Source of the DNA: Kiritimatiellia bacterium
Lineage (GTDB): Bacteria; Verrucomicrobiota; Kiritimatiellia; RFP12; UBA1067
NCBI GenBank assembly: GCA_024405395.1
Contig: JAKSOW010000001.1
Coordinates: 6,277 to 70,276 of the forward strand
Length of the DNA stretch: 64,000 bases
Direction of reading: 5' to 3'
The position numbers and the translations under genes were made by a program. Position 1 is the first letter of the stretch; the number at the start of each line of letters is the position of its first letter. This document shows positions 1 to 27,252 of this stretch, piece after piece. Below the pieces are notes generated by a model, which saw only the letters and a list, made by a program, of their open reading frames with translations, was not told the origin of the DNA and ran no database searches.

Positions 1-130
1 TCCTATAACTCTGTACCGCATCGGCAAAAAGCGCTGGATCCTGTATTTTGTCCCATGACGCATAGACGAAGATTGCGGCAATCCCAATTCGCAACACGCC
101 CTCAACAACAAGAACAAGCTTCTGCTTCAT
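1..130 (-). CDS. DoxX/MauE-like membrane protein, N-terminal fragment (gene continues past the left edge)
   Basis: The ATG at 130..128 overlaps the stop of the preceding small ORF (ATGA). My reverse-complement translation is MKQKLVLVVEGVLRIGIAAIFVYASWDKIQDPALFADAVQSYR. It is hydrophobic, and the xxLRIxxxxxFxxAxxDKIxDPxxFAxxVxxY pattern resembles DoxX-family N-termini. Confidence 0.5.
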   Translation of the reverse strand, partial: MKQKLVLVVEGVLRIGIAAIFVYASWDKIQDPALFADAVQSYR

Positions 131-318
131 GGCTCATCTCCTGTTTCGGACTCTCCGCTCTGGTGTGTTTCCGGTCCCGTCCACGGTATGCGTTGCTCTT
201 CGTAGACGCGCAGATTGTTGGCGATGCCCAAAAGCATCGCCAACACGATAATCGCAACCACAACAATCCAATTGAATCGCCACCCCCAAAAAGAAATTTC
301 CAGCCTGCTCATGCGCAT
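127..318 (-). CDS. small single-pass membrane protein (hypothetical)
   Basis: This is part of track ORF 127..375. ATGs at 318 and 312 lie just downstream of the protease stop (333). The product MRMSRLEISFWGWRFNWIVVVAIIVLAMLLGIANNL... has one clear hydrophobic helix followed by an acidic tail. Its stop overlaps the next ATG. Confidence 0.35.
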   Translation of the reverse strand: MRMSRLEISFWGWRFNWIVVVAIIVLAMLLGIANNLRVYEEQRIPWTGPETHQSGESETGDEP

Positions 319-332
319 ATTCCGGGACGACT

Positions 333-2015
333 TCACTTCACCACCACGGGCCAGGACATTGCGGGTTTCTTGCATACGGCAACACCTCGACCAACGCCAT
401 CAACAACAAGCCCATTCACCGTAAATTTGTACTTCGCAAGTTTGGTGCGGCCATTATTCGTCTCTAGTGCATAAATTGTGAAAGTGCCCTTGAATATTCC
501 CGTCTTGGCCGCGAACGAAAGCTTCACACCCGCATTGTTCTCAGCTTCTGGATCATACTGAAGCTCCATCTCCTGGGTTTCGCGATTCTTTGCGTATTTC
601 ACCTTACCGGCCTTGGGGAAGGTCCACTTGGCGCCCGCGACATCAAAGGCCGTTCCGTCTGGCGTCAGGCTAGACAACCAATCAAATCCCTCAGAAGAAG
701 ATGCGTCAACGGAAAGGATCGCCGTACCGTTTTCCAATCCTCCGACAATTGCCTTCTTGACGGAATAACCTTCCGTGTGCAAACCATCGCTTTCAAGCAC
801 ATATCCCTGTGCCGGATCATAGTCCACAACAATCGCCACATCGTTCACTGGCGCCTTGAACGAGAGCAGGCCAGAGATTCGATTCCCCTTCGGAGTGAAA
901 GACTTGGCCTTGGCGGCAACCTTCTTGCCATTGGGCAGAATGATGGATCCGGACACCTTGACTTCATTCTTCTTCTGGTTGTATTTCCCAAGCTTCAGCT
1001 GTACAATTCCCGCAACTTCATCACCCGCATCAATGAGAGCGCCCGAAACGGTCACAGCCTTGGTGTAGGCTGTCGTCACGTCAGGAATCGGCGCAGGCGT
1101 GGGATCGTCCTTGGGATCCTGCGGATCTTTGGGGTCAACCACAGGATCTTTCGGCTTAACACTCTTGCGAAACGCCGCAACAATCGCAAAATTGTCCTTG
1201 ACGGTCTTGGCGTTGTTGTGATTGGCGTCACCCATCGGCACACCCTCGAAATCAATGTCCGGATTGGAGAAATAGGGGATCGTCTGCCAAATTTCAGAGC
1301 TTCCGGGTTTTGGCGTATAGGCAAGCAATGTCGCATAGTTGCCGCTTGACGTCGACAGATAGAATGCCGAGGAATAGGCATCATGGCAGGGGCCATCTGT
1401 CCCATCACCATCTCCATATGTGGAAACATCCGCATGACCCGCCCCCAAGAGATGCCCTATCTCATGCGGGACGACATAGCCATCCTCATGGGCAGCAGCC
1501 TCAACACTTGCGATACAGTAGGCATACGTCGAATATAGACTGGGGCTGGGCCACCCCGCATCAAACTCCCAACCAATACCTGCAGCCCCAGCGGCAATCC
1601 GCGTAAGCACGCAAACCACATCAGCACCCACTTTTTCACGGTACTGATGAACCTTATCCCAGTCATACCCATCTCGGACATGACCTTTTCCTGTATTGTC
1701 GCACACCACATCCGTCAGCATCGAAACGACGTCGCCCGTACCCGAGGACGGCACCAGCAATTCGCCTACCGAACGAAAATCACCTGCAGAAGAGATTCCA
1801 GAATTCGCCATGACGCGGTTGAGCTTCTCTACCGAACTGGCCGTAAGCTCCGAAGGCGACACGCCAGCATCACTTAGCCAATCCTGAGCTGATTTGTCGT
1901 ATACAAACAATACGTCAATTGTTGCGGCCATGGTTATGCCTGTTGCCATCAGGATCCATGCCGCCATTATCATTTTCTTCATGTCTTTATCCTTTCTTTC
2001 CCTGCTTGTGATCAT
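333..2015 (-). CDS. secreted zinc metalloprotease, metzincin (reprolysin/M12B-like) with long non-catalytic C-terminal region
   Basis: The zinc-binding motif HEIGHLLGAGHAD (HExxHxxGxxHxD) lies at about nt 1434-1466. The signal-like N-terminus is MKKMIMAAWILMATGITMAA. The ATG at 1982 is preceded by AGGA; the alternative ATG at 2015 overlaps the upstream stop as ATGA. The C-terminal ~250 aa share modules with neighbouring genes. Confidence 0.85.
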   Translation of the reverse strand: MITSRERKDKDMKKMIMAAWILMATGITMAATIDVLFVYDKSAQDWLSDAGVSPSELTASSVEKLNRVMANSGISSAGDFRSVGELLVPSSGTGDVVSMLTDVVCDNTGKGHVRDGYDWDKVHQYREKVGADVVCVLTRIAAGAAGIGWEFDAGWPSPSLYSTYAYCIASVEAAAHEDGYVVPHEIGHLLGAGHADVSTYGDGDGTDGPCHDAYSSAFYLSTSSGNYATLLAYTPKPGSSEIWQTIPYFSNPDIDFEGVPMGDANHNNAKTVKDNFAIVAAFRKSVKPKDPVVDPKDPQDPKDDPTPAPIPDVTTAYTKAVTVSGALIDAGDEVAGIVQLKLGKYNQKKNEVKVSGSIILPNGKKVAAKAKSFTPKGNRISGLLSFKAPVNDVAIVVDYDPAQGYVLESDGLHTEGYSVKKAIVGGLENGTAILSVDASSSEGFDWLSSLTPDGTAFDVAGAKWTFPKAGKVKYAKNRETQEMELQYDPEAENNAGVKLSFAAKTGIFKGTFTIYALETNNGRTKLAKYKFTVNGLVVDGVGRGVAVCKKPAMSWPVVVK

Positions 2016-5000
2016 TTTGCAAACATGTTAAACGGAACCGTAGAAGTCATTCGCTTCCCATTCACTTCTGTCTTGTAGCTGAAATAGCCGCTCGCAAAAG
2101 GCCGTTCTGCAAACTCTCCTGGAAAACTCTCTGCTATACACCCGCAGTCGATCCATCCAGGCGTCAATACTCCGCTAAAGTTCCCTTTGACTTCCTCTTC
2201 TCCAAAGTTAAATGTGGCTTTCCCAGAAACCAAACCTGAAGATGAATTTATCCGGCAAATTGCATCGGGGACTTCTTGACCCATGATTGAACAAACTACG
2301 GATTTCAAATCAAAAAGTCCAAGCCACGATTCAAGGGTAGTACGCTTTGCATAATATATGCCATAGCAGTCCAAGTCGGATGTAAATGCATCAAACTCAC
2401 CCACATGCCGCCATCGTGCGGCTACTCCTCTCACTGGACGAACAACCCGAGCAGTGGTCTCGTCTGCATAGTACTTTTCTCCGTTAGCATGAATTCGCAA
2501 TAAAGCCGAAAGAGAATCTCTCCTTTCCGCATGCAGAATCGGCAAGATTGCGTATTCCGAATCCTCTGGATCAATTGCCAACATTGATTTCGCGCTAAAT
2601 CTCGTACCTGAAGGAAGCGACCCCTTCAACCTAACAGTGCCAGTCTTCGAAACCGAAATCATTGCATATCCGGAACCTGTGAAATTACCGCCTGACACAT
2701 TTTCCACTCCAAATGCCATCGTGTAGTAACCAGCAAACGACCTCAGCTCTCCCATTGCCGAAGATCCAGAGGCACCACCAAACTCAACGCTCAAAACACC
2801 ACTGGCAGATAAGATCAACTTGAGGCTATGTTTGGGGGAAATGAGTTGCGCCGACGCCTCTCCTGAATCAGTATTCATGTATGACCAATAACCACTGAAG
2901 AACTTTGCTTGACTCGATAATTCAACAACCTTGGCCGAAAGTTTACCCGATTTGCTTTGTTTTAGGGTTACCATTCCCACCACATCCGAAGTTCCGTCAC
3001 CTGATGCCTTCACAAGAGGCACCGTCCACAAGCCGCCAACGCCAACAAATTGATTAAACTCACGTGGATCCATGATAGTTACCGTAACCGCCACAACGCC
3101 CGAAGGAATATTGGCATTGCCAATCTTTCTCGTCACCTCATACGAGAAATCAAATATTCCCTTTTTCTTTGCCTGGCCACGCAAACACACGGCTCCCGTC
3201 TGCTCATCAACGTAAAGCCTAAGCCCATTTGGCAATTGCCCCGATTTCTTCTTTACCGTAACCCGAGAGCAACCGTCAACCTCAACAGTTTCTAAAATGC
3301 ACTTCGTTTGGAATCCAACGTACGCGGAGGCCTCCTCATTACCGCTCCCTGGGACAAATTCACAGCTCACCTCCGCTGCATAACAAGAGGAGCCTCCCGC
3401 CACACGAGCAGGCATAGTTCCAGTCAATTTCAATACCGGTCGTAGTGATTGTGCATGTGATTTTCTAACTGCAAATTCCAGGGAATTAGTTCCACAGGCC
3501 ACCACAACTCCGTCTAAGACCAGAGATATCATCACGTCATGCGTGGAAGACACCGACACCGAGAAACTACCTGTTGAGAATCCCCGCAGAATAAACGCTT
3601 CAGCAGCATCACAGATTTGGAAATCAACTTGGGCTCGTCCCCCCGCTACCGACAGCTCCCGTCTAGTTGTGGAGACATAATCAGAAGACTCATCAGCACG
3701 ATTAGCCAATTTCAGAAGATCATCAAGCCGGGCGATGTTTTCCTCTGGATCATAGTAGCGAACATCAGAACCTATTTCACCATTACGGTCTCGCCATGTT
3801 GAGCAACGACCAACAACACGTCCCTTTCCGTCAATCAACAACAGCGTTGGTGTGCTGAGACGAGTCGCAGATGTTTCTGGTGCCTTCCACTCAGAAACTG
3901 AATTTCTGACACTTCGTTCGTGGGCGGCTAACACCAAAGGATCATCAGCATGCAACCCATGGCGAGACAAATATGCAGCACCACTAACCATCTTTCTTTC
4001 ATTCCCTGTATGGATGTGCTCCAAACCCGCGGCATAGGAAAGAAGATGCCCTGCATCTGCGTAAGTGTCGCTCTCTGAGAATGCCTGATCAAACAACACC
4101 AACTGTACCCGATTGTCCTCAAGCCAATCTCGGAATAGATCCGACGCAAAAAGTGATTGTTCCATCCCTTTACAATAGGGACACCATAAGACTCCTGAAT
4201 AAATCGCCAGGATTGCTTTAGCTTTACCCTCGACGACCTTACGACACGCAAGATCATAATCAAGTGTCCAATCCGAATACCTCAACTCCTCTATTGTGCT
4301 TTCCCCCACAAAATATGGATTTGTTGGCGAATTCACCTGGGCATCAACGCAATGCACAAATGAAGAAGAGACCACATCCCCCTTAGAGTCAATAAGAGAC
4401 AGCTCTATGCTCTTTCCTGTGGGAAACTCACATCCCAGAAACTTTTCAAGCGAGAGCGATACGATGGCATTCGTCTGTCCCATTGCCCAATGAATCGCAT
4501 TTGTAACTGGGGGCAGAACATTTCCAGGCCATGCAGCAACCAACAGATTATCGTCGGCAACACCTGGAAGACGCTTCAACGGAATATCAACAAACGACGT
4601 ATTCGACTCTATCTCAAGGCGATCACCCTCTCCGTCTGAGCATTGGAAACCAGCAACTGTACGATTTGTGGTGTAGGACCCGCAGAGTTTCTGAATGCTC
4701 TGTTCCAATTCTATCGCCAACAATTCCAACATTTCTGGATCATGCTCCGCAAGCGCGGAAAGAGACATCGCGGGGTCACGCGGCACAAGCATGCGTCCAG
4801 ATCTTCCAACAAAGCTCTCAGCCAAAGTCTCAACCCCATTCTTTGGCCACCATACACAGATGAACGGGAAACTGGTGAGCCAATTTCCTACAGATTTCGT
4901 GAATCCGGCACTACGAGCGAAATCACAGGCGCCCGTCCCCTCATTTACTTCAATATCCGCGCCAGAGGTACCTTGCACATAACAATAGACATAATCTGAA

Positions 5001-5269
5001 TGCTTCGTTTGCCAAGTGCGAAACGACTCGAGATTGACTGCCGTCTCAAGCTTTTCACACTCGCCACAAGAGGAATTAGCCCAAAACAACACCAGTGGAG
5101 CCTTAAGACTCTGTGCCAGGTTGGTAGCCGCGGTGAACGACTCAAGCCAAACGCCAGTCCTAGTTTCGTTCGAAACCTGGACTGGCGAATCAGCCTGCGC
5201 ATCCAGCGCCACCAAGGCGACAGTCACTGACAGTATCAGCGTGCCGATTCTTGAATGCAATACCGTCAA
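2012..5269 (-). CDS. large exported protein with two thioredoxin-like CxxC domains and an Ig-like segment
   Basis: The track ORF runs to 5419, but its first ~50 codons overlap the upstream gene and show no signal peptide. TTG starts at 5269 or 5260 give ...HSRIGTLILSVTVALVALDAQA, a signal peptide. The CxxC contexts are LVLFWANSSCGECEKLE and LAIYSGVLWCPYCKGMEQ. An Ig-like GQLPNGLRLYVDEQTGAV segment is present. The start codon is uncertain. Confidence 0.8.
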   Translation of the reverse strand: MTVLHSRIGTLILSVTVALVALDAQADSPVQVSNETRTGVWLESFTAATNLAQSLKAPLVLFWANSSCGECEKLETAVNLESFRTWQTKHSDYVYCYVQGTSGADIEVNEGTGACDFARSAGFTKSVGNWLTSFPFICVWWPKNGVETLAESFVGRSGRMLVPRDPAMSLSALAEHDPEMLELLAIELEQSIQKLCGSYTTNRTVAGFQCSDGEGDRLEIESNTSFVDIPLKRLPGVADDNLLVAAWPGNVLPPVTNAIHWAMGQTNAIVSLSLEKFLGCEFPTGKSIELSLIDSKGDVVSSSFVHCVDAQVNSPTNPYFVGESTIEELRYSDWTLDYDLACRKVVEGKAKAILAIYSGVLWCPYCKGMEQSLFASDLFRDWLEDNRVQLVLFDQAFSESDTYADAGHLLSYAAGLEHIHTGNERKMVSGAAYLSRHGLHADDPLVLAAHERSVRNSVSEWKAPETSATRLSTPTLLLIDGKGRVVGRCSTWRDRNGEIGSDVRYYDPEENIARLDDLLKLANRADESSDYVSTTRRELSVAGGRAQVDFQICDAAEAFILRGFSTGSFSVSVSSTHDVMISLVLDGVVVACGTNSLEFAVRKSHAQSLRPVLKLTGTMPARVAGGSSCYAAEVSCEFVPGSGNEEASAYVGFQTKCILETVEVDGCSRVTVKKKSGQLPNGLRLYVDEQTGAVCLRGQAKKKGIFDFSYEVTRKIGNANIPSGVVAVTVTIMDPREFNQFVGVGGLWTVPLVKASGDGTSDVVGMVTLKQSKSGKLSAKVVELSSQAKFFSGYWSYMNTDSGEASAQLISPKHSLKLILSASGVLSVEFGGASGSSAMGELRSFAGYYTMAFGVENVSGGNFTGSGYAMISVSKTGTVRLKGSLPSGTRFSAKSMLAIDPEDSEYAILPILHAERRDSLSALLRIHANGEKYYADETTARVVRPVRGVAARWRHVGEFDAFTSDLDCYGIYYAKRTTLESWLGLFDLKSVVCSIMGQEVPDAICRINSSSGLVSGKATFNFGEEEVKGNFSGVLTPGWIDCGCIAESFPGEFAERPFASGYFSYKTEVNGKRMTSTVPFNMFAK

Positions 5270-6048
5270 TCCATCACAGCCTTGACATACGCCGGGAAGG
5301 TATACGCTTCCGTGATTTTGGTTGCCTTCTGCAACTTGGCGGATATTTTCTTGTTGTACTTGATCTTCCAAGTTCCGAATGCCGAAGACCCTTGATTCAG
5401 CGAGCAAGTCTCCCCACACTCCAGACAGATAGGCCAGCCAGGTGCCGTAGCAGTGACGGCCTCCGTTCCCTCAATCTTCTCACACCAGTTGCAAGTCCCT
5501 GAAGTGGCTTTAGTGGTCACTACCGCACCCGGCAACATCCATCCGGCGAAGCTACCGCTGACAGGTGAAATGATTGAAGAAAGGAGCGTGCATGTATTCT
5601 TATCCTTGAGCACATTGTCCTTCAGAGACCCAAATCCTGATCCAACAAGATAGAATGTACCATCTTCTGAACTCAGAATCCATGTCAGTTCACATTTGGC
5701 GGCGCTTTTGTCAATACGATTGGCAATTGGCCACTCAAGCTTGACGTTCAAAGGTTTCTGACTGGTCACATTCCAGAAGAAGTAACCAAAAGCATTGGTG
5801 CTGCTCGTATAGGGCTCACCTTTGATCAACGTATCGCAGTCACATCCCCAGATCACACCCTTGATTGTGACAGATCCCTGTTTACGATACAACGTACTCT
5901 GATCAGTACGCATATCGCAAGCAACCATCTTGGGAGTTCCCGACTGCGTAACCGTAGTCTTAACCTTAATGTCTACTTCGTAGAACTGAGCATCTGCAGA
6001 AGCTGCTCCACAAAGCAGGAGCGCAAACAACATTACGATTGTCTTCAT
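5266..6048 (-). CDS. exported Cys-rich protein, unknown family (paralog of 13779..14657)
   Basis: The signal peptide is MKTIVMLFALLLCGAASADA. The protein has more than 10 Cys. It shares with the 13779 gene the motifs YEVDIKVKT/YDLTIKLKT, T[IL]KG[VI]IW.C, GTWK[IL]KY[NS]KKI and [FM]PAY.K at the C-terminus. Confidence 0.75.
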   Translation of the reverse strand: MKTIVMLFALLLCGAASADAQFYEVDIKVKTTVTQSGTPKMVACDMRTDQSTLYRKQGSVTIKGVIWGCDCDTLIKGEPYTSSTNAFGYFFWNVTSQKPLNVKLEWPIANRIDKSAAKCELTWILSSEDGTFYLVGSGFGSLKDNVLKDKNTCTLLSSIISPVSGSFAGWMLPGAVVTTKATSGTCNWCEKIEGTEAVTATAPGWPICLECGETCSLNQGSSAFGTWKIKYNKKISAKLQKATKITEAYTFPAYVKAVMD

Positions 6049-6078
6049 TGTCTTACATCCTTTTTCAATTTTACTAGC

Positions 6079-6612
6079 TTAATCAATGGAGAACTCGGAT
6101 GTCCCAAGTTTGCTGGAGGAAGCTGTACCATACCCCTCGCTGCCGTCAAACGTACCACTGATTTTGACCGTGTACTTTTTGAGCTTCATCTTGGTGACAC
6201 CCTTCTTGGTTTCATATTCCTGCACACCATAGACCTTGAAGGATCCCTTGACTGTTCCCTTCTTGCGGTTGTAGGAAAGCTTAAGACCGGCATAATTAGA
6301 GCTTTTGTCCGAATCCTTGAGCACCAACTCGTAATCCCCATCAACCTTTTTCACTTTGACAGAAAGGGCCTTATCGGTTTTCAACTTCTTGCCTGTGAAA
6401 TAGACAGGCTCGCCATCCGGGAAAAGATCAGACTGAATTTCGATTTCATCATCCGAAATATCAAATCCATCATCCAGTGTGAATGTGAATTCGGAATCCT
6501 CATAACTCTCATCATCTTTGTCCTTATTTTTGGCAAAAGCCGAAGAGATCGGCGCAAGCACCAATCCTAACGCCAAAACACCAATTGCTGTCTTTACCCA
6601 TTTCCTGTTCAT
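6079..6612 (-). CDS. small exported protein, unknown function (shares C-terminal module with the metalloprotease)
   Basis: An AGGAG sits 7 nt upstream of the ATG. The signal peptide is MNRKWVKTAIGVLALGLVLAPISSAFA, followed by an acidic stretch. Its GLKLSYNRKKGTVKGSFKVYGVQ...KMKLKKYTVKISGTFDGSEGYG aligns with GVKLSFAAKTGIFKGTFTIYAL...TKLAKYKFTVNGLVVDGVGRG of the 333..2015 product. Confidence 0.75.
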   Translation of the reverse strand: MNRKWVKTAIGVLALGLVLAPISSAFAKNKDKDDESYEDSEFTFTLDDGFDISDDEIEIQSDLFPDGEPVYFTGKKLKTDKALSVKVKKVDGDYELVLKDSDKSSNYAGLKLSYNRKKGTVKGSFKVYGVQEYETKKGVTKMKLKKYTVKISGTFDGSEGYGTASSSKLGTSEFSID

Positions 6613-6639
6613 GATCAGTTCTCCTTTTTTTGTAAGAAA

Positions 6640-7719
6640 TCAATCTTCAGCCCTTTTGGCTTCTACCACCAATTGAAACTCGCGAACTACCTTGGTTGCC
6701 GCCACATCTCTCCCTTCAGCGGTCACGGTAATATTATAACATCCTTTTCGCCAAAGTGTACCAGAAAAAACACCTTCTTCTGAATCCAGCGAAAGTCCGA
6801 ATGGCATACCCTCTGCGCTGAATTTCATCGGCCGCGTTGCCTCTTCAACTTCTAACCGGAACTTGAATTTCTTCCCTACCTTCGCAATGATCGGTTGTTC
6901 TGGAACCGAAAATACCGGCGGCCTACAAGCAGATACATTCCTGAAATTGGCTGTATAGGTTCCCTCAGTCATACCAGAGTCAATGACTAGCTTACGAGCA
7001 TAACCTACACACCTTCCATTAGGATCCATCCATCCCCAAAACACGCTACCAGAATCATCGGCAATTGCCGTGATTACAACTGTACCACGTTCATCCGCAA
7101 GCTCCCCAGAGACTGGATCCATCTCAATTTTTCCACTCCCTCCTGTTTGAGTGAATTTGAAATACTTTGAGTCAGGACTATGCAATATCTCTTTGGGATT
7201 GGATAATTTTGCCGTATAATCAATCAAAATCTTGTCCAGAGCGGAAATCAATTCCATCTGAAGAAATTTATGTCGAATTCCAGGCATCGTTCCACGACGA
7301 CCAGAGAAAGTCCTTTTTACCTCTGTCCCGTCTTCTTTCTTCCAATATACGCAAACTATCGGTATACCAGTTACCTCCTTGAACCCCTCTCGTTGAAAAG
7401 CTTCTGTTTGCTTGAACTGAGGATTCTTGTCATTTATATGTACCATAAAAATCTTACGGTCATCTTGCCACATCTTGAAATCCGTACTATTCATGGATTT
7501 GTTCAAGCGATAACAGAAACTACATTCAGTTCCAGCACTGATAACTAGAATCGGCTTATGAGCTGATTTCGCAACCGCTAGTGCATTAGTGAAATTATCG
7601 CTCCATACACCTGGCGTAACTTCATGTACGATAGGTATTTTGGCGCTTACTTCATCCCGTCCATGACACAAGGCTGTTACTAATAAAAAAATGAATACCA
7701 CGAGCTTACTCATCTTCAT
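6640..7719 (-). CDS. exported thioredoxin-fold (CxxC) + Ig-like domain protein
   Basis: The ATG at 7719 overlaps the upstream TAA (TAATG). The signal peptide is MKMSKLVVFIFLLVTALCHG. The CxxC context is ILVISAGTECSFCYRLNKSM. IPIVCVYWKKEDGTEVKRTFSGRRGTMP is conserved in the paralogs. The Ig-like segment is AEGMPFGLSLDSEEGVFSGTL. Confidence 0.8.
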   Translation of the reverse strand: MKMSKLVVFIFLLVTALCHGRDEVSAKIPIVHEVTPGVWSDNFTNALAVAKSAHKPILVISAGTECSFCYRLNKSMNSTDFKMWQDDRKIFMVHINDKNPQFKQTEAFQREGFKEVTGIPIVCVYWKKEDGTEVKRTFSGRRGTMPGIRHKFLQMELISALDKILIDYTAKLSNPKEILHSPDSKYFKFTQTGGSGKIEMDPVSGELADERGTVVITAIADDSGSVFWGWMDPNGRCVGYARKLVIDSGMTEGTYTANFRNVSACRPPVFSVPEQPIIAKVGKKFKFRLEVEEATRPMKFSAEGMPFGLSLDSEEGVFSGTLWRKGCYNITVTAEGRDVAATKVVREFQLVVEAKRAED

Positions 7720-9551
7720 TAATTCCCTTCTTTCGTAACCAAATCTAACCAATTCGGTATGTAGAGTTCTGCCCCTGGAACCTGTTCAACCCAAGAAGGT
7801 GGCAAATCATAATCAGAAGACAACCGCCCTGCCAGACGACCAAGAATAACCCGCACCTCCATTTTCTTCTGTAAAGACTCATCTATTTTTTTCCATGAGA
7901 ATGGAGGAGAAAGGAAAATCAGTTTTTCAGGGATGCAGAGACCATGATCCTGACGGTTAAACGTTTCAAGGTATTCAGCACCTCTCCATCCAGCAAGTAC
8001 TAACGTTCGTGTCTTATCTGGCAAAGCCGAAAGTTTCCGCACGAACGCAATTGCTGGGGCATTAGTATGGGACTGGAAAAACTGTCGCATCTCCTTGCCT
8101 TGATAAATCTGATATCCGCCATCAAGAACTGCGTCATCGCCTACAATCCACACTTTGGGATCTTCTCCGTTAAGCAAAACGTGATCTGGGAATCCCTTTA
8201 TGGATACCAACTGTCTGCAATTCCTTCCCCATATACCTACCACTACAACGGCACCAAGAGAAATAACCACAGCCATACATACAGCCACCAAAATCACCCG
8301 CCGTCCAAAAGGTCTAAAATCTTTGAACCCAGAAACAAGTGAAAATATCGGCAACACCCAAAGAAGTGGCTCCTCCAACTCATGTGTGAAACAGGCTGAT
8401 ACACCAAAAGCCACAAAGACCGCAAACGGCAAAGATTTCTTGTCGCGAAACGCCCACACCGCAAACAGGAACATGAAAAACAGCCAAGCAAACACATAGC
8501 CAACACGCTCCATACAACCCATCTCTACAAGCCATGTCAAATGGCTATTCTGCAGCTCAGACACCGCCAACGGCGTATCAAAGGACTGATACCAGTCAAC
8601 ATAGGCACGACCCCCATTACCATAGCCCCAACCTGTGGGAGCATCCGCCATCATTCTCGGTACAGCAGCCCACATTGTTCGCCGATCGGTGCGGGGGTCT
8701 TGGGCAAGAAAACCGCTGGTAAACCTAGTTCCACCAAACTTAAATGCAATGCCACCAAGGGCAACCAGCAGCAACAACGCTACCAGAATTCTGCGGAACG
8801 AAAATAAATCCTTGAATTCCCTAAAATGTGGTACAATAAGGGAAACAATACCCAAAACGAATCCGAGAAGACATCCCCGCGACTGCGTAAGGAACAAGAA
8901 GACCAATGACGCCAAGAAAGGGATGACGGCAACCATCCCGAGAATTAACCGACGACCATGAAACAACACCAATGCCACGGATAGGAACATCACCGACAAC
9001 ATCATAAAGATGGCTGCCGTCTTGTTTGGATTGATGAATTCCCCAAAAGGAATCCGGAACCGACCTGATTCTTTCCAGATGTCTACAGAAGTGACATCAT
9101 CCAACATTCCTCTTTGTTTCTGCTCCCAAAGCTTAGGTATGGCTTCATCCGACTGTACAGGCTTGATGCGCTTAACAACCATCTGCTCCCGATCGAAGGT
9201 CATCTTGCGCAACGTTCCATTATAAAACTCAAATTCCGTCTGTCCCCCAGTAAAGTCATCACGCGTACGAACGGTTGTCCGCCCATATTCAGAATAACCT
9301 TCCCACGGATCTTGGGCGAGTAAACGGGAAGGATTCTCCCGATCACGATACAAATAGCGAACCGTTTGGTCGGGTTGGGTCAATCGGCAAACCTCATAAT
9401 TTATCGGGACGAAAGTGGATTCAACTACATTAGTACCCCATTTAGTTGGGTCAGTTCGAAACCCATAGTAGGCGAATGACACCCATGACTGCAACAGAAC
9501 TATTGCAATCATAAAAATACGACGAATTGACCATGACTTAAACATATTCAC
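7719..9551 (-). CDS. polytopic membrane protein, O-antigen-ligase/Wzy_C-like core with extra N- and C-terminal soluble domains
   Basis: The central region has about 10 hydrophobic helices. It includes FLTQSRGCLLGFVLGIVSL, which resembles the Wzy_C/WaaL signature region. A ~170-aa region separates the first hydrophobic segment from the core, and a ~190-aa soluble tail follows it. The start is GTG 9551 or ATG 9545, 2-8 nt after the upstream stop. Confidence 0.7.
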   Translation of the reverse strand: MNMFKSWSIRRIFMIAIVLLQSWVSFAYYGFRTDPTKWGTNVVESTFVPINYEVCRLTQPDQTVRYLYRDRENPSRLLAQDPWEGYSEYGRTTVRTRDDFTGGQTEFEFYNGTLRKMTFDREQMVVKRIKPVQSDEAIPKLWEQKQRGMLDDVTSVDIWKESGRFRIPFGEFINPNKTAAIFMMLSVMFLSVALVLFHGRRLILGMVAVIPFLASLVFLFLTQSRGCLLGFVLGIVSLIVPHFREFKDLFSFRRILVALLLLVALGGIAFKFGGTRFTSGFLAQDPRTDRRTMWAAVPRMMADAPTGWGYGNGGRAYVDWYQSFDTPLAVSELQNSHLTWLVEMGCMERVGYVFAWLFFMFLFAVWAFRDKKSLPFAVFVAFGVSACFTHELEEPLLWVLPIFSLVSGFKDFRPFGRRVILVAVCMAVVISLGAVVVVGIWGRNCRQLVSIKGFPDHVLLNGEDPKVWIVGDDAVLDGGYQIYQGKEMRQFFQSHTNAPAIAFVRKLSALPDKTRTLVLAGWRGAEYLETFNRQDHGLCIPEKLIFLSPPFSWKKIDESLQKKMEVRVILGRLAGRLSSDYDLPPSWVEQVPGAELYIPNWLDLVTKEGN

Positions 9552-9553
9552 GA

Positions 9554-10195
9554 TTATTCGTCATCCTCTTCTTCTTGATTTTCCTCAAGCCATTTCTGAG
9601 CGGTGGCAACATTTTTCCAATCATCACCCGTCACGTATTCATAAGCTTCTTTCGCCGCCGCACGCGCAACACCATTACTGCTGGCAATAAGATGAACGAT
9701 GATATCAATAGACAAAGTAGGACGCAGATCGTTCAGTTGAAATGAAATTGATTCCATAACTTCACGATCACGAACCAACATCATGGTCTCCTCAATGAGT
9801 ACACCCTTTTCATGTTCATCCTCAATATCATTAATTGCCGAATCCCATTGATCCTGTGCCTCTGATCTAACGTCTTCATCGCGGTCAAGCAAAAACGGCA
9901 TCAACGCCCGTACAGATTTTTTTCCAAACCAGCCAATGGATTCAACACAACGCAAGCGAACTACTGCATTTTTCGAATTCTTGAGCTTTTCTACATAAGA
10001 CAATGCCTCCTGAAAATCTTCCTTCTCTACAGCATTCTCAAGATCAGAAACCTGCTTCTCTTCGCTAACCGTACATTCTGATGTCTCTACAACATTCTTT
10101 TGCATTTCCTTATCGGGTTCAGACTTGCCGCAACCGCTAAGTAGACAAACAACAACAGCAATACCGACTATATTCTTCATTTCTATCACCTTCAT
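9554..10195 (-). CDS. HEAT/PBS-lyase-like repeat lipoprotein
   Basis: The ATG at 10195 overlaps the upstream TGA (ATGA). The N-terminus MKVIEMKNIVGIAVVVCLLSGCGK contains the lipobox LSGC. VRLRCVESIGWFGKKSVRALMPFLLDRDEDVRSEAQDQW is HEAT-like. The tail is acidic. It is a paralog of 11688..12614. Confidence 0.75.
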   Translation of the reverse strand: MKVIEMKNIVGIAVVVCLLSGCGKSEPDKEMQKNVVETSECTVSEEKQVSDLENAVEKEDFQEALSYVEKLKNSKNAVVRLRCVESIGWFGKKSVRALMPFLLDRDEDVRSEAQDQWDSAINDIEDEHEKGVLIEETMMLVRDREVMESISFQLNDLRPTLSIDIIVHLIASSNGVARAAAKEAYEYVTGDDWKNVATAQKWLEENQEEEDDE

Positions 10196-11685
10196 GGCAA
10201 TGAGGCCAGAACTGTAACGTTGCCTTGACCCTGAATTTTTATTGTTCCTGTGATTTTGCCAGAATTCAAATCCAGACTTAACAAACCGATGACCACATTT
10301 TTCCCAGATTTCCTGAAAACAGGCAACCAGGTCGTTACGCAATCGGTACTCTCAACCAACACACTCTTGGTATTGATGCGAAGTCTATTTGGAAACGTTC
10401 CCTTTATTGAAACTACACCTGTCTTCGCTGCCGCCTTCTTCATTACCAACTGTAGTTCTGTTTCATTTTCAAGGATAATCTTACGGTCCATAACATAAAG
10501 ACTCGCAGGAGACTTTGCTGTCCAAAGTGTATGAGAGAAACAAATTCTACGCGACACACCATCTGTAGATATGAAATTTCCTATCAGCTGCCCTTCGGAT
10601 GTAACAGCTAACAAAAATGAACATCCCACTCCCGTTCCTGAAATTTCCAATATACCATCCGATGACAAACTTTTCCACCCTTTAGAAACCGCCTTCAACT
10701 TGTTATCGACACCATCATACTGGATTTTTGCCTGTCCTTTCTCCGAGAGTGTTAAGGATATTATTCCTTGCATCTCGCCATCCTCTGACAATATAAATCC
10801 ACTTGTCTTCACCGACTTTGTGATCGTGAAGGCAGAACAGACTTTAGAAACTGGAACCACAGTAATCGTTAGGGTAAATGTCTGACTGCCCTTCTCTATT
10901 CCTACATCGCGTTTTTCAGCCAGAATCCAAGAACTGGTAAACGTACCTGCTTTAGTTGGATTTCCTTTAAACAAAACCCGTTTAGAGACAGAATCATAGG
11001 ATACCTTTATTCCCGAAGGGAGTCTTCCAGAAGCCTTCTTTACCTGCACCATCCCACCTACCGTATTGGTTACTTGAAAGTATTCCTCAAAAGGAATATG
11101 CTGAACTGACTCAACAGTTGCATTCCGAAGCGCAAACGCCGGCATTGGCTGATCCATAGGTGCCGATGGTCTAGGAGAATCTAAAGTAGAGGAAAATGCA
11201 AAGCCCGAATCAACCAAAACCTTCTCAACTGAACTAGTCAACTGCAACGCTAGGGGCCCAAGTTTCACCGGCATGTATCCATCGCGACCAACAAAAGCTC
11301 TCTCAATTATCGTTCCATCTGTTTTTGGCCAATAGATGCAAAACAACGGCAACTCATTAATCCACGGATTAATAGATCGTATGAATTTAAGTCCTGCTTT
11401 TGCATCTGAATCGCCATCATGACATACGCTCATTATTATGCGGTGGTCATAAAGCCATTCCTGAAAATCAGCACTATCTAGTGCTGACTTCATCTGATTG
11501 CACATTGGACATGAGCTACGTGCCCACAATAACAACATAGGAGTGCATGTCTCGTTAGCATAGCTAAGACCCTTGGAAAACCCCGCATTCCACTCACCTA
11601 AACATATCTCTCCCCTAGAAAAAGAAAAAGCCCATACACTGAAAACTAGAATGATATTAAAAGACAGTACCAAAATTTTTTTCAT
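10192..11685 (-). CDS. exported thioredoxin-fold (CxxC) + Ig-like domain protein
   Basis: The signal peptide is MKKILVLSFNIILVFSVWAFS. The CxxC context is MLLLWARSSCPMCNQMKSAL. ELPLFCIYWPKTDGTIIERAFVGRDGYMP is conserved with the paralogs. The Ig-like segment is GRLPSGIKVSYDSVSKRVLFKGNPTKAGTF. The start lies 2 nt after the upstream TAG. Confidence 0.8.
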   Translation of the reverse strand: MKKILVLSFNIILVFSVWAFSFSRGEICLGEWNAGFSKGLSYANETCTPMLLLWARSSCPMCNQMKSALDSADFQEWLYDHRIIMSVCHDGDSDAKAGLKFIRSINPWINELPLFCIYWPKTDGTIIERAFVGRDGYMPVKLGPLALQLTSSVEKVLVDSGFAFSSTLDSPRPSAPMDQPMPAFALRNATVESVQHIPFEEYFQVTNTVGGMVQVKKASGRLPSGIKVSYDSVSKRVLFKGNPTKAGTFTSSWILAEKRDVGIEKGSQTFTLTITVVPVSKVCSAFTITKSVKTSGFILSEDGEMQGIISLTLSEKGQAKIQYDGVDNKLKAVSKGWKSLSSDGILEISGTGVGCSFLLAVTSEGQLIGNFISTDGVSRRICFSHTLWTAKSPASLYVMDRKIILENETELQLVMKKAAAKTGVVSIKGTFPNRLRINTKSVLVESTDCVTTWLPVFRKSGKNVVIGLLSLDLNSGKITGTIKIQGQGNVTVLASLP

Positions 11686-11687
11686 TG

Positions 11688-12614
11688 CTACTCTCCTTCA
11701 GAATTTTGCCCTTCTTCTTTTGAAATCGTTTTATCAAAATTTTTTCTCTCTGGTATATCGTACTCTGTGTCGTTTATGATTTTCATACCAGAAATATCTA
11801 TTTCTGGGTCAAATACCTCTGGGTGAAGAGATGCTCGATAGACTGGTATGTCATCAGATTCTTCTGACAAATCAATGTTCTCATTGACCCAGGCTTGTGC
11901 AGCCTCAAACGTCGTATACTCCTCCCCTGTTAGAAAAGAATAAGACTCAAGTGCTACATCCACAACATCTGGATTCTCACTATTAATCAAGGCTACCACT
12001 GACTCAATCGCCGTAAAAGTTGATAGTTCATTCAAATTAAAAGCGATATCTTCCAACATATCACGGTCTTTAATCACACCCATTGTAGCTTCAATAATTG
12101 TAGCCTTAACACGCTCATCTTCGACTTGACCTAAAGCAGATAACCAAAGATCTTGTGCAGCATCACGAACATTTTCATCCTGATCAACAAGAAAAGGCGT
12201 CAACTCAGGAAGGGCTTCCTCATTAAACCAACCAAGTGCCTCAATGGCTCTAAGGCGAACAATCTCATTTGTGGAATTTCCCATTAGTTTTGCAAGTTCT
12301 TGAACTGTAGTGAAATCCTCGGCATTAAGAGCTTTATCAACTTCATCAAACAACCGTCGATCCTGTGGCGAAACCTCATCAGGAATTTGAGATCGATCAA
12401 CTTTTCGTTTTTCCCGCCTTAATGTATTAACTTTAATGCTCGTATCCCTTATCTCAACTAGTTGCTTAACATTTGCCGGTTTGCGCCTTGATATACGCAT
12501 TCCAGTTCCAGATCTATTAGTTTGCCCCTCAGTCTCTTTATTGGTTGAAATATTGAAAATGAAAATGGCTATCGTGAATAAAATTACTGAAACTAAAAAA
12601 ATCTTAATTTTCAT
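11688..12614 (-). CDS. HEAT/PBS-lyase-like repeat protein with N-terminal membrane anchor
   Basis: The ATG at 12614 lies 1 nt after the upstream TAA. The N-terminus is MKIKIFLVSVILFTIAIFIFNIS. VRLRAIEALGWFNEEALPELTPFLVDQDENVRDAAQDLW aligns closely with the 9554 gene product. The tail is acidic. Confidence 0.75.
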   Translation of the reverse strand: MKIKIFLVSVILFTIAIFIFNISTNKETEGQTNRSGTGMRISRRKPANVKQLVEIRDTSIKVNTLRREKRKVDRSQIPDEVSPQDRRLFDEVDKALNAEDFTTVQELAKLMGNSTNEIVRLRAIEALGWFNEEALPELTPFLVDQDENVRDAAQDLWLSALGQVEDERVKATIIEATMGVIKDRDMLEDIAFNLNELSTFTAIESVVALINSENPDVVDVALESYSFLTGEEYTTFEAAQAWVNENIDLSEESDDIPVYRASLHPEVFDPEIDISGMKIINDTEYDIPERKNFDKTISKEEGQNSEGE

Positions 12615-12615
12615 T

Positions 12616-13692
12616 TTACTTCTTCCTTTTACGCGTTGGGAAAACGATACCTTCTCCATAAGGATATTTGATAATCGCTTTCTTACGCAAATCGCGAATA
12701 GTATTCCCGATAACCTCTTCCTGTCGTTCCTTAATCAATTCACGTTTTATGAATTCAGGATCCTCGTCAAATATTATGGCTGTTCGCCAAACAATGCGGG
12801 CAAGATGGCGAGCAAATACTGTTCCATCACCATTCACATCTTCTTTATCGCCCAAAAATTTTACTATCTCTATCCCATCATCGGTTGTCATAACATCTGT
12901 AATCTCACCAGGCTTTAAACATACTATGCTCTCCCAATAAACTGGGGCTTCCATTGAGAAGTCATCAGCCGTGCAAAAACCCAAGTCACCTCCTGGATTT
13001 TTTTCTTCATCCTGTGAAAAATCATCAGCCAGCTCAGAGAAATCTGCACCAGCCCTTGCCCTTGCCAAAACGTTAGTTGCTTCTGCATAAATGTGAATAT
13101 TTGTCTGCACCATACGCGCATTGTATGCAATCGTTTGCGCCACTTGATTTGAAATTGCTTCGGCAGATACCAGCATTTGAGTTGCCAATGCCGTCTTAAT
13201 GTAGTGCTGGCTCCATAAATCCAGCTCTAGCATCTCTTCAATCACATGACAATTAACACCTTTATCAAAGGAACAAAGTTGTTTGAAAGACATTCCTTTT
13301 TTACCATAGCTTAACGCATATTTTTCCTGAAGCTTCAACCTTTCTTCTTTTGTTGGCACAAAATTCATCCGTTTTGCTTCACTTGCCAACAATGCCATCG
13401 GAAAAAAGTTTTGATATTCTTTCTCCCGAAACCGCGTCTTTAGCATTTGAAACTTATGATCTGCTATAGTACCGACTTTCGCTTTGGCAAAACTCAATTT
13501 TGCCATAATTTGACCCTCATATTGTCCCTTGGTCAACTTTATACCATTGACTTCTACAAGCACCGAGTCAGAGTTGAGGCTACTATATGTTTCTCTCGTG
13601 CCTTTCGCACCATAAACATTGTTTATCCCGAAAGTAAGAAACAACAAAACTATACGAACAATTTTAAATGGAGTATAAGTTTTCATTTCCAC
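12616..13692 (-). CDS. exported SurA-N/parvulin-type peptidyl-prolyl cis-trans isomerase
   Basis: The N-terminus is signal-like (IVRIVLLFLTFGINNVYG). The PpiC/parvulin signature region is GGDLGFCTADDF...LKPGEITDVMTTDDGIEIVKFLG. The preceding helical region resembles the SurA/PrsA N-terminal chaperone part. Confidence 0.8.
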   Translation of the reverse strand: MEMKTYTPFKIVRIVLLFLTFGINNVYGAKGTRETYSSLNSDSVLVEVNGIKLTKGQYEGQIMAKLSFAKAKVGTIADHKFQMLKTRFREKEYQNFFPMALLASEAKRMNFVPTKEERLKLQEKYALSYGKKGMSFKQLCSFDKGVNCHVIEEMLELDLWSQHYIKTALATQMLVSAEAISNQVAQTIAYNARMVQTNIHIYAEATNVLARARAGADFSELADDFSQDEEKNPGGDLGFCTADDFSMEAPVYWESIVCLKPGEITDVMTTDDGIEIVKFLGDKEDVNGDGTVFARHLARIVWRTAIIFDEDPEFIKRELIKERQEEVIGNTIRDLRKKAIIKYPYGEGIVFPTRKRKK

Positions 13693-13705
13693 TGCTATCT
13701 CAAAT

Positions 13706-13744
13706 GTAAAAAGCGGGAGGAAGCACTTTCATGCATCCACCCGC
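13706..13744 (-). terminator. candidate rho-independent terminator after the 13779 gene
   Basis: On the minus strand, GCGGGTGGA pairs with TCCTCCCGC (one T:T mismatch) and is followed by TTTTT. A second perfect hairpin, TTATTCGCC-GAAG-GGCGAATAA, lies at 13757..13778 directly after the stop. Confidence 0.45.
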
Positions 13745-13778
13745 CTTGTCTCAATTATTCGCCCTTCGGCGAATAACC

Positions 13779-14657
13779 TTACTTAGCATACGCAGGCATA
13801 TAGGCAGCAACACCCTTAGTACCATTGGCAATCTTCTTGCTGTACTTCAGCTTCCACGTACCATACGCAGCAAGCAGTTCAGAACCAGCAGATTCGGTAA
13901 GATCGTCACAAACCGCACCGAAATCATCGCAGATACCAACAAGACCAGCCCAGTGATAGTCACACTCACGAATGGTAGGATCACCCGTCACCGAACCGGC
14001 AACACTACCAGAAACGTTCTTGACAACACCCTTCTTGACATCAAACGAACCAAGACCAGCGAGCTTAAGGTCGTAATCACTGAAATCAGCCGTTTCAGCA
14101 TTAAAACCACCTGCCCCATCCGAGACATTACGCCAAGCATAGTCAATCCAACCCATGTCACCATTCTCATCCTTGGCGTACACCTGCTCCTTACCAGCGA
14201 AGTCCCAGACCATGGAAACCTTGTTGGCCTTCTTCTCGTAACGATAAACCTCATCGCCAACAGCCGACTTGAAGTCATTAGCCTTGTATTTCTCAACAGT
14301 CTTACCGCCTTCGACAACAGTCTCCGTAGTGAGGTAATCACCAATCACGTGCTGGAAGCCCTTATCGGTACGCCAAATCACGTACTGGGCACCATCAAAA
14401 TCGCAAGCCGACTTGCAGTTCCAAATGATACCCTTCAGCGTACGCTTACCATTCTTGTAGTAGGAGACACACGTTTTCGTCTCACCCAAGCACGCACTAC
14501 CACCCTTGCACTTAAGGGTCTTGGGAGCGAGCGTCTTAAGCTTGATCGTAAGATCATAAGCCTGACAATCCGAACTCGGATCAATCGTGCAGAGGTCACC
14601 TGCAAAAACACCAATACCAGCAGCTGCAACAGCGGCAGCAATCATCAACTTCTTCAT
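13779..14657 (-). CDS. exported Cys-rich protein, unknown family (paralog of 5266..6048)
   Basis: The best start is the ATG at 14657 (MKKLMIAAAVAAAGIGVFAG, a signal peptide), preceded by an A-rich/GGA region. It shares motifs with the 5266 gene (see that entry). The overlapping plus-strand ORF 13731..14732 is judged an antisense artefact. Confidence 0.75.
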   Translation of the reverse strand: MKKLMIAAAVAAAGIGVFAGDLCTIDPSSDCQAYDLTIKLKTLAPKTLKCKGGSACLGETKTCVSYYKNGKRTLKGIIWNCKSACDFDGAQYVIWRTDKGFQHVIGDYLTTETVVEGGKTVEKYKANDFKSAVGDEVYRYEKKANKVSMVWDFAGKEQVYAKDENGDMGWIDYAWRNVSDGAGGFNAETADFSDYDLKLAGLGSFDVKKGVVKNVSGSVAGSVTGDPTIRECDYHWAGLVGICDDFGAVCDDLTESAGSELLAAYGTWKLKYSKKIANGTKGVAAYMPAYAK

Positions 14658-14899
14658 TTTTTTTCCTTTTTTAACCGGGTAGAATCCCGTGCCTTTACGA
14701 CGGTCGATCGTTTCCCAGATGAAAACCGCTGAGATATTCGGCCGGGCCACACTAGTATACCCGTACTTTTTTACAGGAGCTACCCTGATCTCTCACGCTT
14801 CGGGGCTGCATTCAGTAGCCCAGCACGTAACAATCTTTCGACCATTACTCCTAGGGTACTGGACTAATCCAGCCACCCTTCCACGGGAGAAACGCGCAT

Positions 14900-19574: not shown

Positions 19575-19860
19575 TGCATGCTCCTGACACCATTTCGCCG
19601 GACAGTCCCGCTGTCAGCGATTCCTAAGATTGTACCTAATATTCCTTCTAAAGTAAAGAATGAATAATACTAATATTAGGTTGTTCAATAACTCCAATAA
19701 CTTCTTCAAGTACTGTAAAATCAAGGCCTGCGTGACTTTTCAGCTGTTCATTTCCCATTCAGTCGGATGTTCAGCGCTGTTGATGATTCGGCGGGCTTTA
19801 GACAACTGTCCACAAGTGGATGGGTTCTGCACAACTTCTCTACAGGGGATGAACAGATTA
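19575..19860. promoter_or_regulatory. dnaA-dnaN intergenic region with AT-rich tract and DnaA-box-like palindrome (possible oriC part)
   Basis: This 286-nt gap has an AT-rich run at about 19621-19725. CTGTCCACA (19806..19814) matches 7 of 9 positions of TTATCCACA. It abuts AGTGGAT to form TCCAC-AA-GTGGA. TGAACA/TGTTCA motifs are also present. Confidence 0.35.
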
Positions 19861-21297: not shown

Positions 21298-21435
21298 GAT
21301 CTTGTTGTCCTAGTGGACACTATTTAACCATATTTCCCGAACAAAACCACGCAAAAGAAATGAAAAGAAATGAACAAGTTGTGAACAGATACCTGTTCAT
21401 AGCTTAATGCAGGCTTTGCCTATCTGACTTGCGGA
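21298..21435 (-). promoter_or_regulatory. dnaA upstream region: extended -10-like TGGTTAAAT plus three TGAACA/TGTTCA sites
   Basis: The minus strand reads ...CTATGAACAGGTATCTGTTCACAACTTGTTCATTTC...ATATGGTTAAATAGTGTCCACTAGGACAACAAGATCATG. The TGn-extended -10 lies at 21322..21330. Confidence 0.35.
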
Positions 21436-23775: not shown

Positions 23776-23875
23776 CTATAATGCCTTTTGTTTATGAACC
23801 AATATTTTCCCAAAAAGACGTGATTTTGGCAACCCTTTTATTTGACGCATAACGCATCATGTTCTACGGATCATC

Positions 23876-25843: not shown

Positions 25844-25933
25844 TGCAGATATTATAACATGCTTTAAGACAAAATATAAGAGATAACAGATAAAAGATAA
25901 ACGAGGGCCTCTGCTTTTCTCGATGAAATCTTT

Positions 25934-27191: not shown

Positions 27192-27221
27192 TTGTATACA
27201 TATTAAAGGATATGCTATACT
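27192..27221 (+). promoter_or_regulatory. candidate promoter TTGTAT-18 nt-TGcTATACT for the beta-helix gene
   Basis: The extended -10, TGCTATACT, lies at 27213..27221 within an AT-rich tract. An AGGAGG RBS lies at 27241, and the ATG is at 27253. Confidence 0.4.
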
Positions 27222-27252
27222 TTAAGCATCGTCAACCGCAAGGAGGAAAGAA

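Follow-up and report, generated by a model that had tools for sequence, protein, structure and literature searches.

The DNA analyzed here, referred to below as the window, is a 64,000-nucleotide stretch of contig JAKSOW010000001.1 from a Kiritimatiellia bacterium (assembly GCA_024405395.1). Towards its start lies a string of minus-strand genes for exported proteins, and among them stands an open reading frame (ORF), 7719..9551, which an earlier note, made from the sequence alone, had described as an O-antigen-ligase-like membrane protein with extra soluble domains; the ORF exists as described there. What was already on record for its product is a generic annotation that places it in the Wzy_C superfamily, where it does belong. 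The protein is a distinct, undescribed variant within that superfamily, characterized by a minimal membrane core, two new periplasmic domains, a distribution in the Planctomycetota-Verrucomicrobiota-Chlamydiota (PVC) superphylum and a conserved maturation cassette, and the function that we tentatively favour for it is glycan ligation.

Domain layout and conserved residues

The Pfam model Wzy_C (PF04932) matches the protein with an E-value of 4.4e-13 and a score of 49.7 bits, the gathering cut-off being 31.7, which is far beyond chance, and the segment that the earlier note had singled out as Wzy_C-like, FLTQSRGCLLGFVLGIVSL, corresponds to residues 219-237. The gene model at NCBI, where the source is given as a Kiritimatiellae metagenome-assembled genome (MAG), bears the name 'O-antigen ligase family protein'. 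Secondary structure assigned by DSSP to an AlphaFold2 model (mean pLDDT 80, pTM 0.75), read by hand together with hydropathy to count the helices, gives the layout listed in Table 1. The N-terminal hydrophobic segment is probably a cleavable signal peptide, with a predicted cleavage site between VSFA and YY, and A-x-A-like ends are found at the same place in homologues. The helices of the membrane core span residues 175-198, 202-222, 225-242, 252-272, 346-370, 374-388, 396-409 and 417-443. The N-terminal domain, the loop between helices 4 and 5 (residues 279-345) and the C-terminal domain are predicted from hydropathy and the model to be periplasmic, and the four predicted cytoplasmic loops contain 2, 4, 3 and 4 lysines and arginines, which satisfies the positive-inside rule; the conserved loop, whose location the earlier note had treated as decisive, is thus predicted to lie in the periplasm and not in the cytoplasm.

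The two soluble regions had been regarded in the note as foreign to classical WaaL, and hydropathy and the model agree both with their presence, at about 145 residues on the N-terminal side and about 166 on the C-terminal side, and with their foreignness. Neither domain is matched by any Pfam model, even at E<=10. In the AlphaFold2 model the C-terminal domain has an alpha/beta-hydrolase-like fold, but a role as an active hydrolase is ruled out, because the domain has no conserved nucleophile-His-acid triad and, indeed, no conserved Ser or His.

The residues that are expected of a ligase are found in the Wzy_C match, which includes T222-x-S224-R225 and the periplasmic loop, the latter carrying R290, P305-x-G307-W308-G309, W320 and H337. 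In an alignment of 159 family members, P175, N176, R225, R290 and G307 are invariant (159/159), W320 is present in 158 and H337 in 155. A search of the sequences in the PDB with the single protein gives no match at E<=10, and it is only via the family profile that Cupriavidus WaaL (7tpg) is reached, at an E-value of 0.0011, with R225 aligned to R191 of WaaL; Foldseek likewise ranks WaaL first, although not significantly (E 0.054), and the overall fold was judged similar to that of the solved WaaL structure. Their counterparts are R215, R288 and H338 in WaaL of E. coli and R224, R298 and H349 in PglL (PMC3643930), while in 7TPG R265 and H313 follow R191 as second Arg and His. Since the spacing between the two arginines and the histidine is 65/47 here, the corresponding values for WaaL being 74/48 in Cupriavidus and 73/50 in E. 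coli and that for PglL 74/51 (PMC10920833, PMC3643930), and since both residues are so highly conserved, R290 is taken as the putative second Arg and H337 as the putative ligase His. A His at this position marks ligases, whereas the related polymerases have Asp or Glu (PMC10920833), so the residue set in the present family is ligase-like.

The closest characterized relatives, WaaL (CAZy GT121; Cupriavidus metallidurans 7TPG/7TPJ) and the protein O-oligosaccharyltransferases PglL, PglS and PilO (TfpO), have the Wzy_C domain and the Arg/Arg/His set in common with the protein, and the long periplasmic loop is a further likeness to WaaL. The principal difference is one of size: WaaL has 12 helices (PMC10920833) and PglS 13 (PMC12800693), compared with eight here. 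The first catalytic Arg lies only about 50 residues into the core, as against residue 191 in WaaL, from which it follows that about four N-terminal helices, making up the N-terminal third of WaaL, are missing. A residue in the N-terminal part of PglS, N28, has been reported to lie near a site analogous to that at which WaaL binds lipid A (PMC12800693). The two added periplasmic domains also distinguish the protein from WaaL, as does the position of its gene, which is not in a lipopolysaccharide (LPS) locus and is present in multiple copies in some genomes.

Likeness to the protein-modifying enzymes extends to the location of the gene, which lies outside LPS loci, adjoining and co-oriented with genes for exported proteins, to a C-terminal domain that follows the last helix on the periplasmic side, a feature of PglS too, and to several short motifs. 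The N-P-N motif lies about 50 residues before the first Arg and is comparable with PglL Q178/N180; P305, at +15 from the second Arg, resembles PglL P313; and H390, E394 and P395 resemble PglL H400, E404 and P406, although this last motif is not kept across the wider family. Against these likenesses must be set the C-terminal domain, which has no sequence relation to those of the PglL group, the absence of a pilin neighbour and the absence of a recognisable sequon. The Wzy polymerases of clan GT-C1 and the SEDS proteins (FtsW/RodA) are more distant in character: where the present family has His, the former have Asp or Glu and the latter Asp, and both have different partners and loci.

Long and short forms of the family

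When 1.84 billion cluster representatives were searched exhaustively with a profile, 495 proteins were returned at E<=1e-30, the best 150 of which are all below 1e-89, so that the family comprises about 500 clusters at 50% identity. A word-indexed search had found only 11 relatives, and the same set when a profile was used, and the large size of the family was seen by means of the exhaustive search. A scan of one genome per species yielded 64 loci, all of the named ones belonging to the PVC group except two (annotated as Blastochloris sp. and Clostridiales); the PVC carriers fall in the Chthoniobacterales, Terrimicrobiaceae, Verrucomicrobiales, Puniceicoccales, Opitutales, Methylacidiphilales, Kiritimatiellae and Lentisphaerae. 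Two or three copies of the gene are present in 7 of about 56 genomes. Candidate carriers that can be cultivated are Chthoniobacter flavus, Kiritimatiella glycovorans and Victivallis vadensis DSM 14823, the last with no more than a weak match (L072).

The family is divided into two length classes, a long form of about 590-600 residues, to which the window protein belongs, and a short form of about 440 residues which starts at the NPN motif and has the C-terminal domain in common with the long form. The genes that accompany the short form were identified by clustering the flanking ORFs. An unnamed protein, 'cluster 1', is encoded directly upstream in 52 loci; a rhodanese followed by a MauE/DoxX protein is encoded directly downstream in 31; a protein of about 410 residues, in some cases a lipoprotein, occurs in 39; and a fused ABC-2 transporter occurs in 21, a PapB/QhpD-like radical S-adenosylmethionine (SAM)/SPASM enzyme in 13, an ICMT-like methyltransferase in 11 and a PMT_2 glycosyltransferase in 10. 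A relationship between cluster 1 and the HEAT-repeat gene that stands upstream of the window gene was considered and rejected, as cluster 1 has no homologue in the long-form loci. No NCBIfam model matches the unnamed short-form partners, nor most of the neighbours of the window gene.

The partner of about 410 residues provides an explanation for the N-terminal domain of the long form. A hidden Markov model of this domain (residues 31-172) matches the N-terminal part of the standalone partner in about 36 short-form loci, with E-values down to 2e-20, and in a pairwise comparison the two are 32% identical over 92 residues (E 1e-8). Because the domain is homologous to a separate gene of the short-form operons, the long form arose, as judged by these sequence matches, when a domain of the partner was fused to the short-form core, and this origin suggests that the standalone partner works physically with the enzyme.

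Thiol-redox components are constant companions of both forms. The most constant neighbour is MauE/DoxX, together with the rhodanese in the short-form operons; these are partners at the locus, not homologues of the ligase-like protein, and they bring to mind the DoxX-SseA (rhodanese) complex and the MauE of methylamine dehydrogenase maturation. In mycobacteria DoxX and the rhodanese SseA form a thiol-recycling membrane complex (PMC7662651). Neither system was seen to be connected with Wzy_C proteins in the literature that could be searched.

Two further observations were made at short-form loci. At L038 (7325-8797), L059 (8005-8493) and 11 others, the radical SAM/SPASM maturase (NF047865, E 2e-61) is encoded just upstream of the short-form gene, as is a short secreted product that contains KD repeats and spaced cysteines; the two look like a thioether-peptide set of the ranthipeptide type. 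At L007 (16033-21361), in a Chthoniobacterales MAG, the locus is flanked by an integrase, ThsB_TIR and TIR_2 and resembles a defence island.

The maturation cassette and the neighbouring glycan genes

The redox and protease setting that the note had pointed out is confirmed by the genes listed in Table 1. The same-strand neighbours of the ligase-like gene all encode exported proteins, with four CxxC thioredoxin-fold domains spread over three of them. The HEAT lipoprotein gene ends 8 nt before the ATG of the ligase-like gene at 9545, and the stop codon of the latter overlaps the ATG of the next gene (TAATG, read directly); the ligase-like gene and its exported-protein neighbours are translationally coupled.

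Table 1. Genes of the cassette and parts of the ligase-like protein, by position in the window
Feature	Position	Strand	Size, basis or remark
Start of MauE/DoxX membrane redox protein, runs off the window	1..130	-	MauE PF07291 E 6e-29 on L076
Single-helix ORF preceding MauE/DoxX	127..375	-	82 aa
Secreted reprolysin/metzincin-like metalloprotease (HExxH)	333..2015	-	Pfam Reprolysin_3/_4/_5, NCBIfam Mep72-like, E 3e-11
Large secreted protein with two thioredoxin-fold domains (CGEC, CPYC)	2012..5227	-	
Secreted Cys-rich protein (u260), predicted 8-stranded beta-barrel and C-terminal helices	5266..6048	-	two CxxC in inserted loop
Small secreted beta protein (u177)	6079..6612	-	homologous to protease C-terminal domain (E 5e-10)
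Secreted thioredoxin-fold (CSFC) and immunoglobulin (Ig)-like (He_PIG) protein	6640..7719	-	He_PIG E 9e-8, Thioredoxin_7 E 7e-5
Wzy_C-like membrane protein, long form	7719..9551	-	610 aa (GTG 9551) / 608 aa (ATG 9545, NCBI model)
Periplasmic C-terminal alpha/beta domain, aa 445-610	7722..8219	-	about 166 aa; in both long and short form
Eight-helix membrane core, aa 173-444, beginning with invariant N174-P175-N176	8220..9035	-	DSSP, hydropathy, Lys/Arg counts, conservation
Wzy_C match, aa 212-345	8517..8918	-	Pfam
Periplasmic N-terminal beta domain, aa 31-172, YD/Rhs-hairpin-like	9036..9461	-	about 145 aa; hydropathy and AlphaFold2
N-terminal hydrophobic segment, aa 9-30	9462..9527	-	hydropathy
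HEAT-repeat lipoprotein, lipobox LLSGC	9554..10180	-	208 aa; Pfam HEAT_2; gene call on L076
Secreted thioredoxin-fold (CPMC) protein	10192..11685	-	497 aa
Membrane-anchored HEAT-repeat protein	11688..12614	-	308 aa; Pfam HEAT_2 E 1e-9; gene call on L076
PrsA/SurA-like peptidyl-prolyl isomerase	12616..13692	-	Pfam Rotamase_3 E 1.4e-12; NCBIfam
Secreted Cys-rich protein (u323), first cassette gene	13779..14657	-	paralogue of the 5266-6048 gene

The cassette recurs, with the same gene set in a similar order, in eight independent long-form loci: that of the window (represented among public contigs by L076), L001, L003, L005, L008, L074, L078 and L080, the ligase-like proteins of the related loci being 29-58% identical to that of the window. 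The common set comprises a Cys-rich protein, prolyl isomerase, thioredoxin-fold proteins, HEAT protein, the Wzy_C-like gene, the thioredoxin-fold/Ig protein, small beta protein, Cys-rich beta-barrel protein and metzincin protease. In six of the eight loci a HEAT gene is the immediate neighbour of the ligase-like gene; L078 has it directly downstream instead of upstream, and in L080 the two are separated by one small gene. Orthologues of the thioredoxin-fold/Ig protein are encoded directly downstream of the ligase-like gene in L001, L003 and L008, with the CxxC kept, and in all 18 of the thioredoxin-fold domains examined, from seven long-form loci, the CxxC is retained. The prolyl isomerase is present in L001, L003, L005, L074, L078 and L080, the protease in L005, L074 and L080, and MauE/DoxX in two of the eight cassette loci. 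In L003 a 56-aa ORF and MauE/DoxX follow the cassette as a pair, and a module of the form KGxFKVY...KYTVxxSG, found in u177 and the protease, recurs in thioredoxin-fold proteins of related loci.

Of the exported proteins, u260 is a candidate acceptor or carrier. It is better conserved than the ligase-like enzyme, with 48-80% identity in most homologues. Its homologues have an invariant mature N-terminus, DAQxYE, and conserved cysteines at positions 44, 69, 71, 186, 189, 208 and 211; three of them (P0177, P0178 and P0185) have long C-terminal tails rich in Ala/Glu/Lys or Pro/Thr, which would be plausible regions for O-glycosylation, and one (L079) is found away from any Wzy_C gene.

The note had also stated that no glycan genes lie nearby, which holds inside the window but fails beyond its edge, because the window cuts the operon. 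The public contig L076 has the same sequence as the window over 1..13360 and continues for another 1131 bp beyond position 1, and in it the protease gene is followed by the 82-aa membrane ORF, MauE/DoxX and, from about 320 bp beyond the window start, a WbaP-like phosphoglycosyl transferase, which over 269 residues shares 58% identity (E 1e-98) with the N-terminal part of an L074 protein that matches Bac_transf (PF02397, E 1.4e-64). Four of the related loci carry glycan genes as well: in L074 the Bac_transf gene is followed by an ABC-2 permease and an ATP-binding cassette (ABC) ATPase; L001 has LicD, EpsG, GT2, Wzm/Wzt and a giant glycosyltransferase; L080 has a cytidylyltransferase, LicD and a Hexapep acetyltransferase; and L005 has a cytidylyltransferase. 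Glycan-assembly genes thus stand in the same gene string in five of the eight long-form loci.

The region 1-14800 is compositionally foreign to its surroundings: the GC content at third codon positions (GC3) is 0.30-0.56, as against 0.67-0.80 for the adjacent dnaA, dnaN and rlmL, the overall GC values being 39-52% and 60-65%, which suggests horizontal acquisition of the cassette beside the origin. Homologous cassettes elsewhere are mostly 50-60% GC. Farther along the window, dnaN, dnaA, a fusion of a Na+/H+ exchanger with EIIA and gidA/mnmG lie together (18480-25843, minus strand, and 25850-27230), and the cumulative GC skew is lowest at about 22-24 kb, from which, together with the dnaA/dnaN/gidA cluster, it can be concluded that the window spans the replication origin region. 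A gene-poor stretch of 1.4 kb with lower GC follows gidA, and DnaA boxes of the E. coli-type consensus are not enriched near dnaA. Two very long plus-strand ORFs, of 3509 aa (37854-48383) and 2015 aa (49537-55584), lie beyond, the first with a Laminin_G_3 domain and an autotransporter-type PATR repeat.

Proposed glycan transfer and choice of acceptor

The function that we favour, with a probability of roughly 0.45 and hence tentatively, is that of a periplasmic ligase which transfers a glycan from undecaprenyl pyrophosphate (Und-PP) to an acceptor other than lipid A, probably a protein. The protein would be a periplasm-facing glycosyltransferase of the WaaL/PglL type, in the GT-C_B fold subclass that contains WaaL and the SEDS peptidoglycan polymerases, and it would move a glycan built on Und-PP en bloc to the acceptor, with the donor pyrophosphate held by R225 and R290 and the acceptor activated by H337, all three residues being on the predicted periplasmic face. 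The donor would likely be made by genes at the edge of the cassette, namely the WbaP-like initiating transferase in this genome and the Wzm/Wzt exporters, LicD, cytidylyltransferase and glycosyltransferases in the related loci. It is the acceptor above all, along with donor and chemistry, that we infer here: lipid A-core appears not to be the acceptor, because the four N-terminal helices of WaaL have been lost and a YD-hairpin N-terminal domain and an alpha/beta C-terminal domain are present instead. The more likely recipient would be an exported protein, or some other molecule of the envelope, that the cassette handles, and the prolyl isomerase, CxxC thioredoxin-fold, MauE/DoxX, HEAT and Cys-rich beta-barrel proteins would supply the means of handling it. 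The suggestion of the earlier note that the enzyme is a protein O-oligosaccharyltransferase acting on the neighbouring exported proteins is plausible, and it is supported indirectly by the loss of the region which in PglS contains a residue reported near the analogous lipid A site, by the tight conservation of the cassette and the translational coupling of its genes, and by the occurrence of several gene copies per genome in loci which are not LPS loci.

Several considerations weigh against this proposal. The assignment of R290 and H337 to WaaL residues depends on spacing and invariance, as opposed to a residue-level superposition, and without four of its helices the enzyme might bind the donor differently or be catalytically inactive. 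PglL_A (PF15864) and Wzy_C_2 (PF11846) do not match, either in the whole protein at E<=0.1 or in the relevant segments at E<=10, no NCBIfam model matches the protein, and the Glu that is important in PglL is weakly conserved (E393 in 60/159). The glycan genes are found at the margins of the cassettes and could be unrelated neighbours, and in three of the eight loci none was seen, though those contigs are short. The neighbouring proteins contain no clear Ser/Ala/Pro-rich acceptor stretches: when they were searched for the Ser/Thr-rich segments that the note had expected of an acceptor, nothing striking was found, the best 15-residue windows having 10/15 S/T/A/P and lying in short linkers, and none of these proteins is a known glycoprotein. 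More generally, glycan transfer is proposed from sequence, a structural model and gene context.

Much of the same evidence can be read as that of a true O-antigen ligase, or of another lipid-linked ligase, which moves an Und-PP glycan, exported by an ABC transporter, onto lipid A-core or some other lipid or glycan acceptor of the outer membrane while the redox and folding genes are merely co-located. WaaL is the best structural match, the Arg/Arg/His set is of the ligase type, the NCBI name points the same way, and Wzm/Wzt beside an initiating transferase is the classical layout for ABC-dependent O-antigen, which needs a ligase but no polymerase. We nevertheless consider such a ligase unlikely, given that the missing helices belong to the region in which a PglS residue is reported near the analogous WaaL lipid A site (PMC12800693), that some genomes have several paralogues, that the gene overlap and the order with the HEAT and thioredoxin-fold/Ig genes recur in loci whose proteins are only 29-58% identical, and that none of the loci showed lipid A-core genes, the context not being that of an LPS core. 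ABC-type export fits a ligase in general and makes a polymerase unnecessary, which bears on the further idea that the protein elongates a repeat-unit polysaccharide in the periplasm as a Wzy-type polymerase. Such an activity would be compatible with the Wzy_C domain, which polymerases also possess, and with the polymerase-like EpsG of L001, but we regard it as highly improbable: 155 of 159 members have His at the acceptor-activating position, where polymerase families have Asp or Glu (PMC10920833), neither a Wzx flippase nor a Wzz chain-length regulator turned up in the loci examined, and the associated exporters are of the ABC type, a route on which polymerization is cytoplasmic.

An alternative of a different kind is that no glycan is transferred at all, and that the reduced core serves as a scaffold in the membrane, or moves some other lipid-linked group, and works together with MauE/DoxX and the CxxC proteins to mature Cys-rich proteins or peptides that are exported. 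The partner that is found family-wide is thiol-redox machinery and not a set of sugar genes: rhodanese and MauE/DoxX directly follow the gene in the 31 short-form loci mentioned above, 13 loci add a radical SAM enzyme of the thioether-forming kind, the CxxC is uniformly kept in the long-form thioredoxin-fold domains, and the mycobacterial DoxX-SseA complex (PMC7662651) offers a precedent. This alternative seems to us quite unlikely, because the pyrophosphate-binding Arg pair and the catalytic His are strictly conserved over about 500 diverged clusters, which argues that ligase chemistry has been retained, and because glycan-assembly genes recur in the loci.

A bolder form of the proposal for an Und-PP-glycan ligase with a non-lipid-A acceptor, which we put forward as doubtful, goes further. 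The long and short forms together would constitute a new, minimal eight-helix class of oligosaccharyltransferase, restricted to the PVC group and embedded in a periplasmic maturation cassette that folds and then glycosylates Cys-rich proteins or peptides destined for export. Oxidative folding would be carried out by the CxxC thioredoxin-fold proteins, MauE/DoxX, rhodanese and sometimes a thioether-forming radical SAM enzyme; glycosylation would follow folding, possibly on an unusual residue; and the YD-hairpin and alpha/beta domains would replace the lost helices as a module for acceptor recognition.

In the searchable literature we found no description of a glycan-ligase homologue constantly paired with periplasmic thiol-redox machinery, and nothing relevant that connects O-antigen ligases or PglL with Kiritimatiellae, Verrucomicrobia, MauE or rhodanese; the pairing is a concrete, testable lead. 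The case also carries a caution of method, in that a window edge which cut an operon made glycan genes seem absent. If glycan transfer is confirmed, eight helices and an Arg/Arg/His loop would be the most compact functional core among ligases of the WaaL/PglL class, which would be useful for understanding acceptor choice and for engineering compact versions of the oligosaccharyltransferases used in glycoconjugate vaccines. It would also suggest that the Verrucomicrobiota, Kiritimatiellae and Lentisphaerae of gut, rumen and soil, in which the assembly of surface glycoconjugates is almost unstudied, possess a pathway for the glycosylation of proteins or of the envelope.

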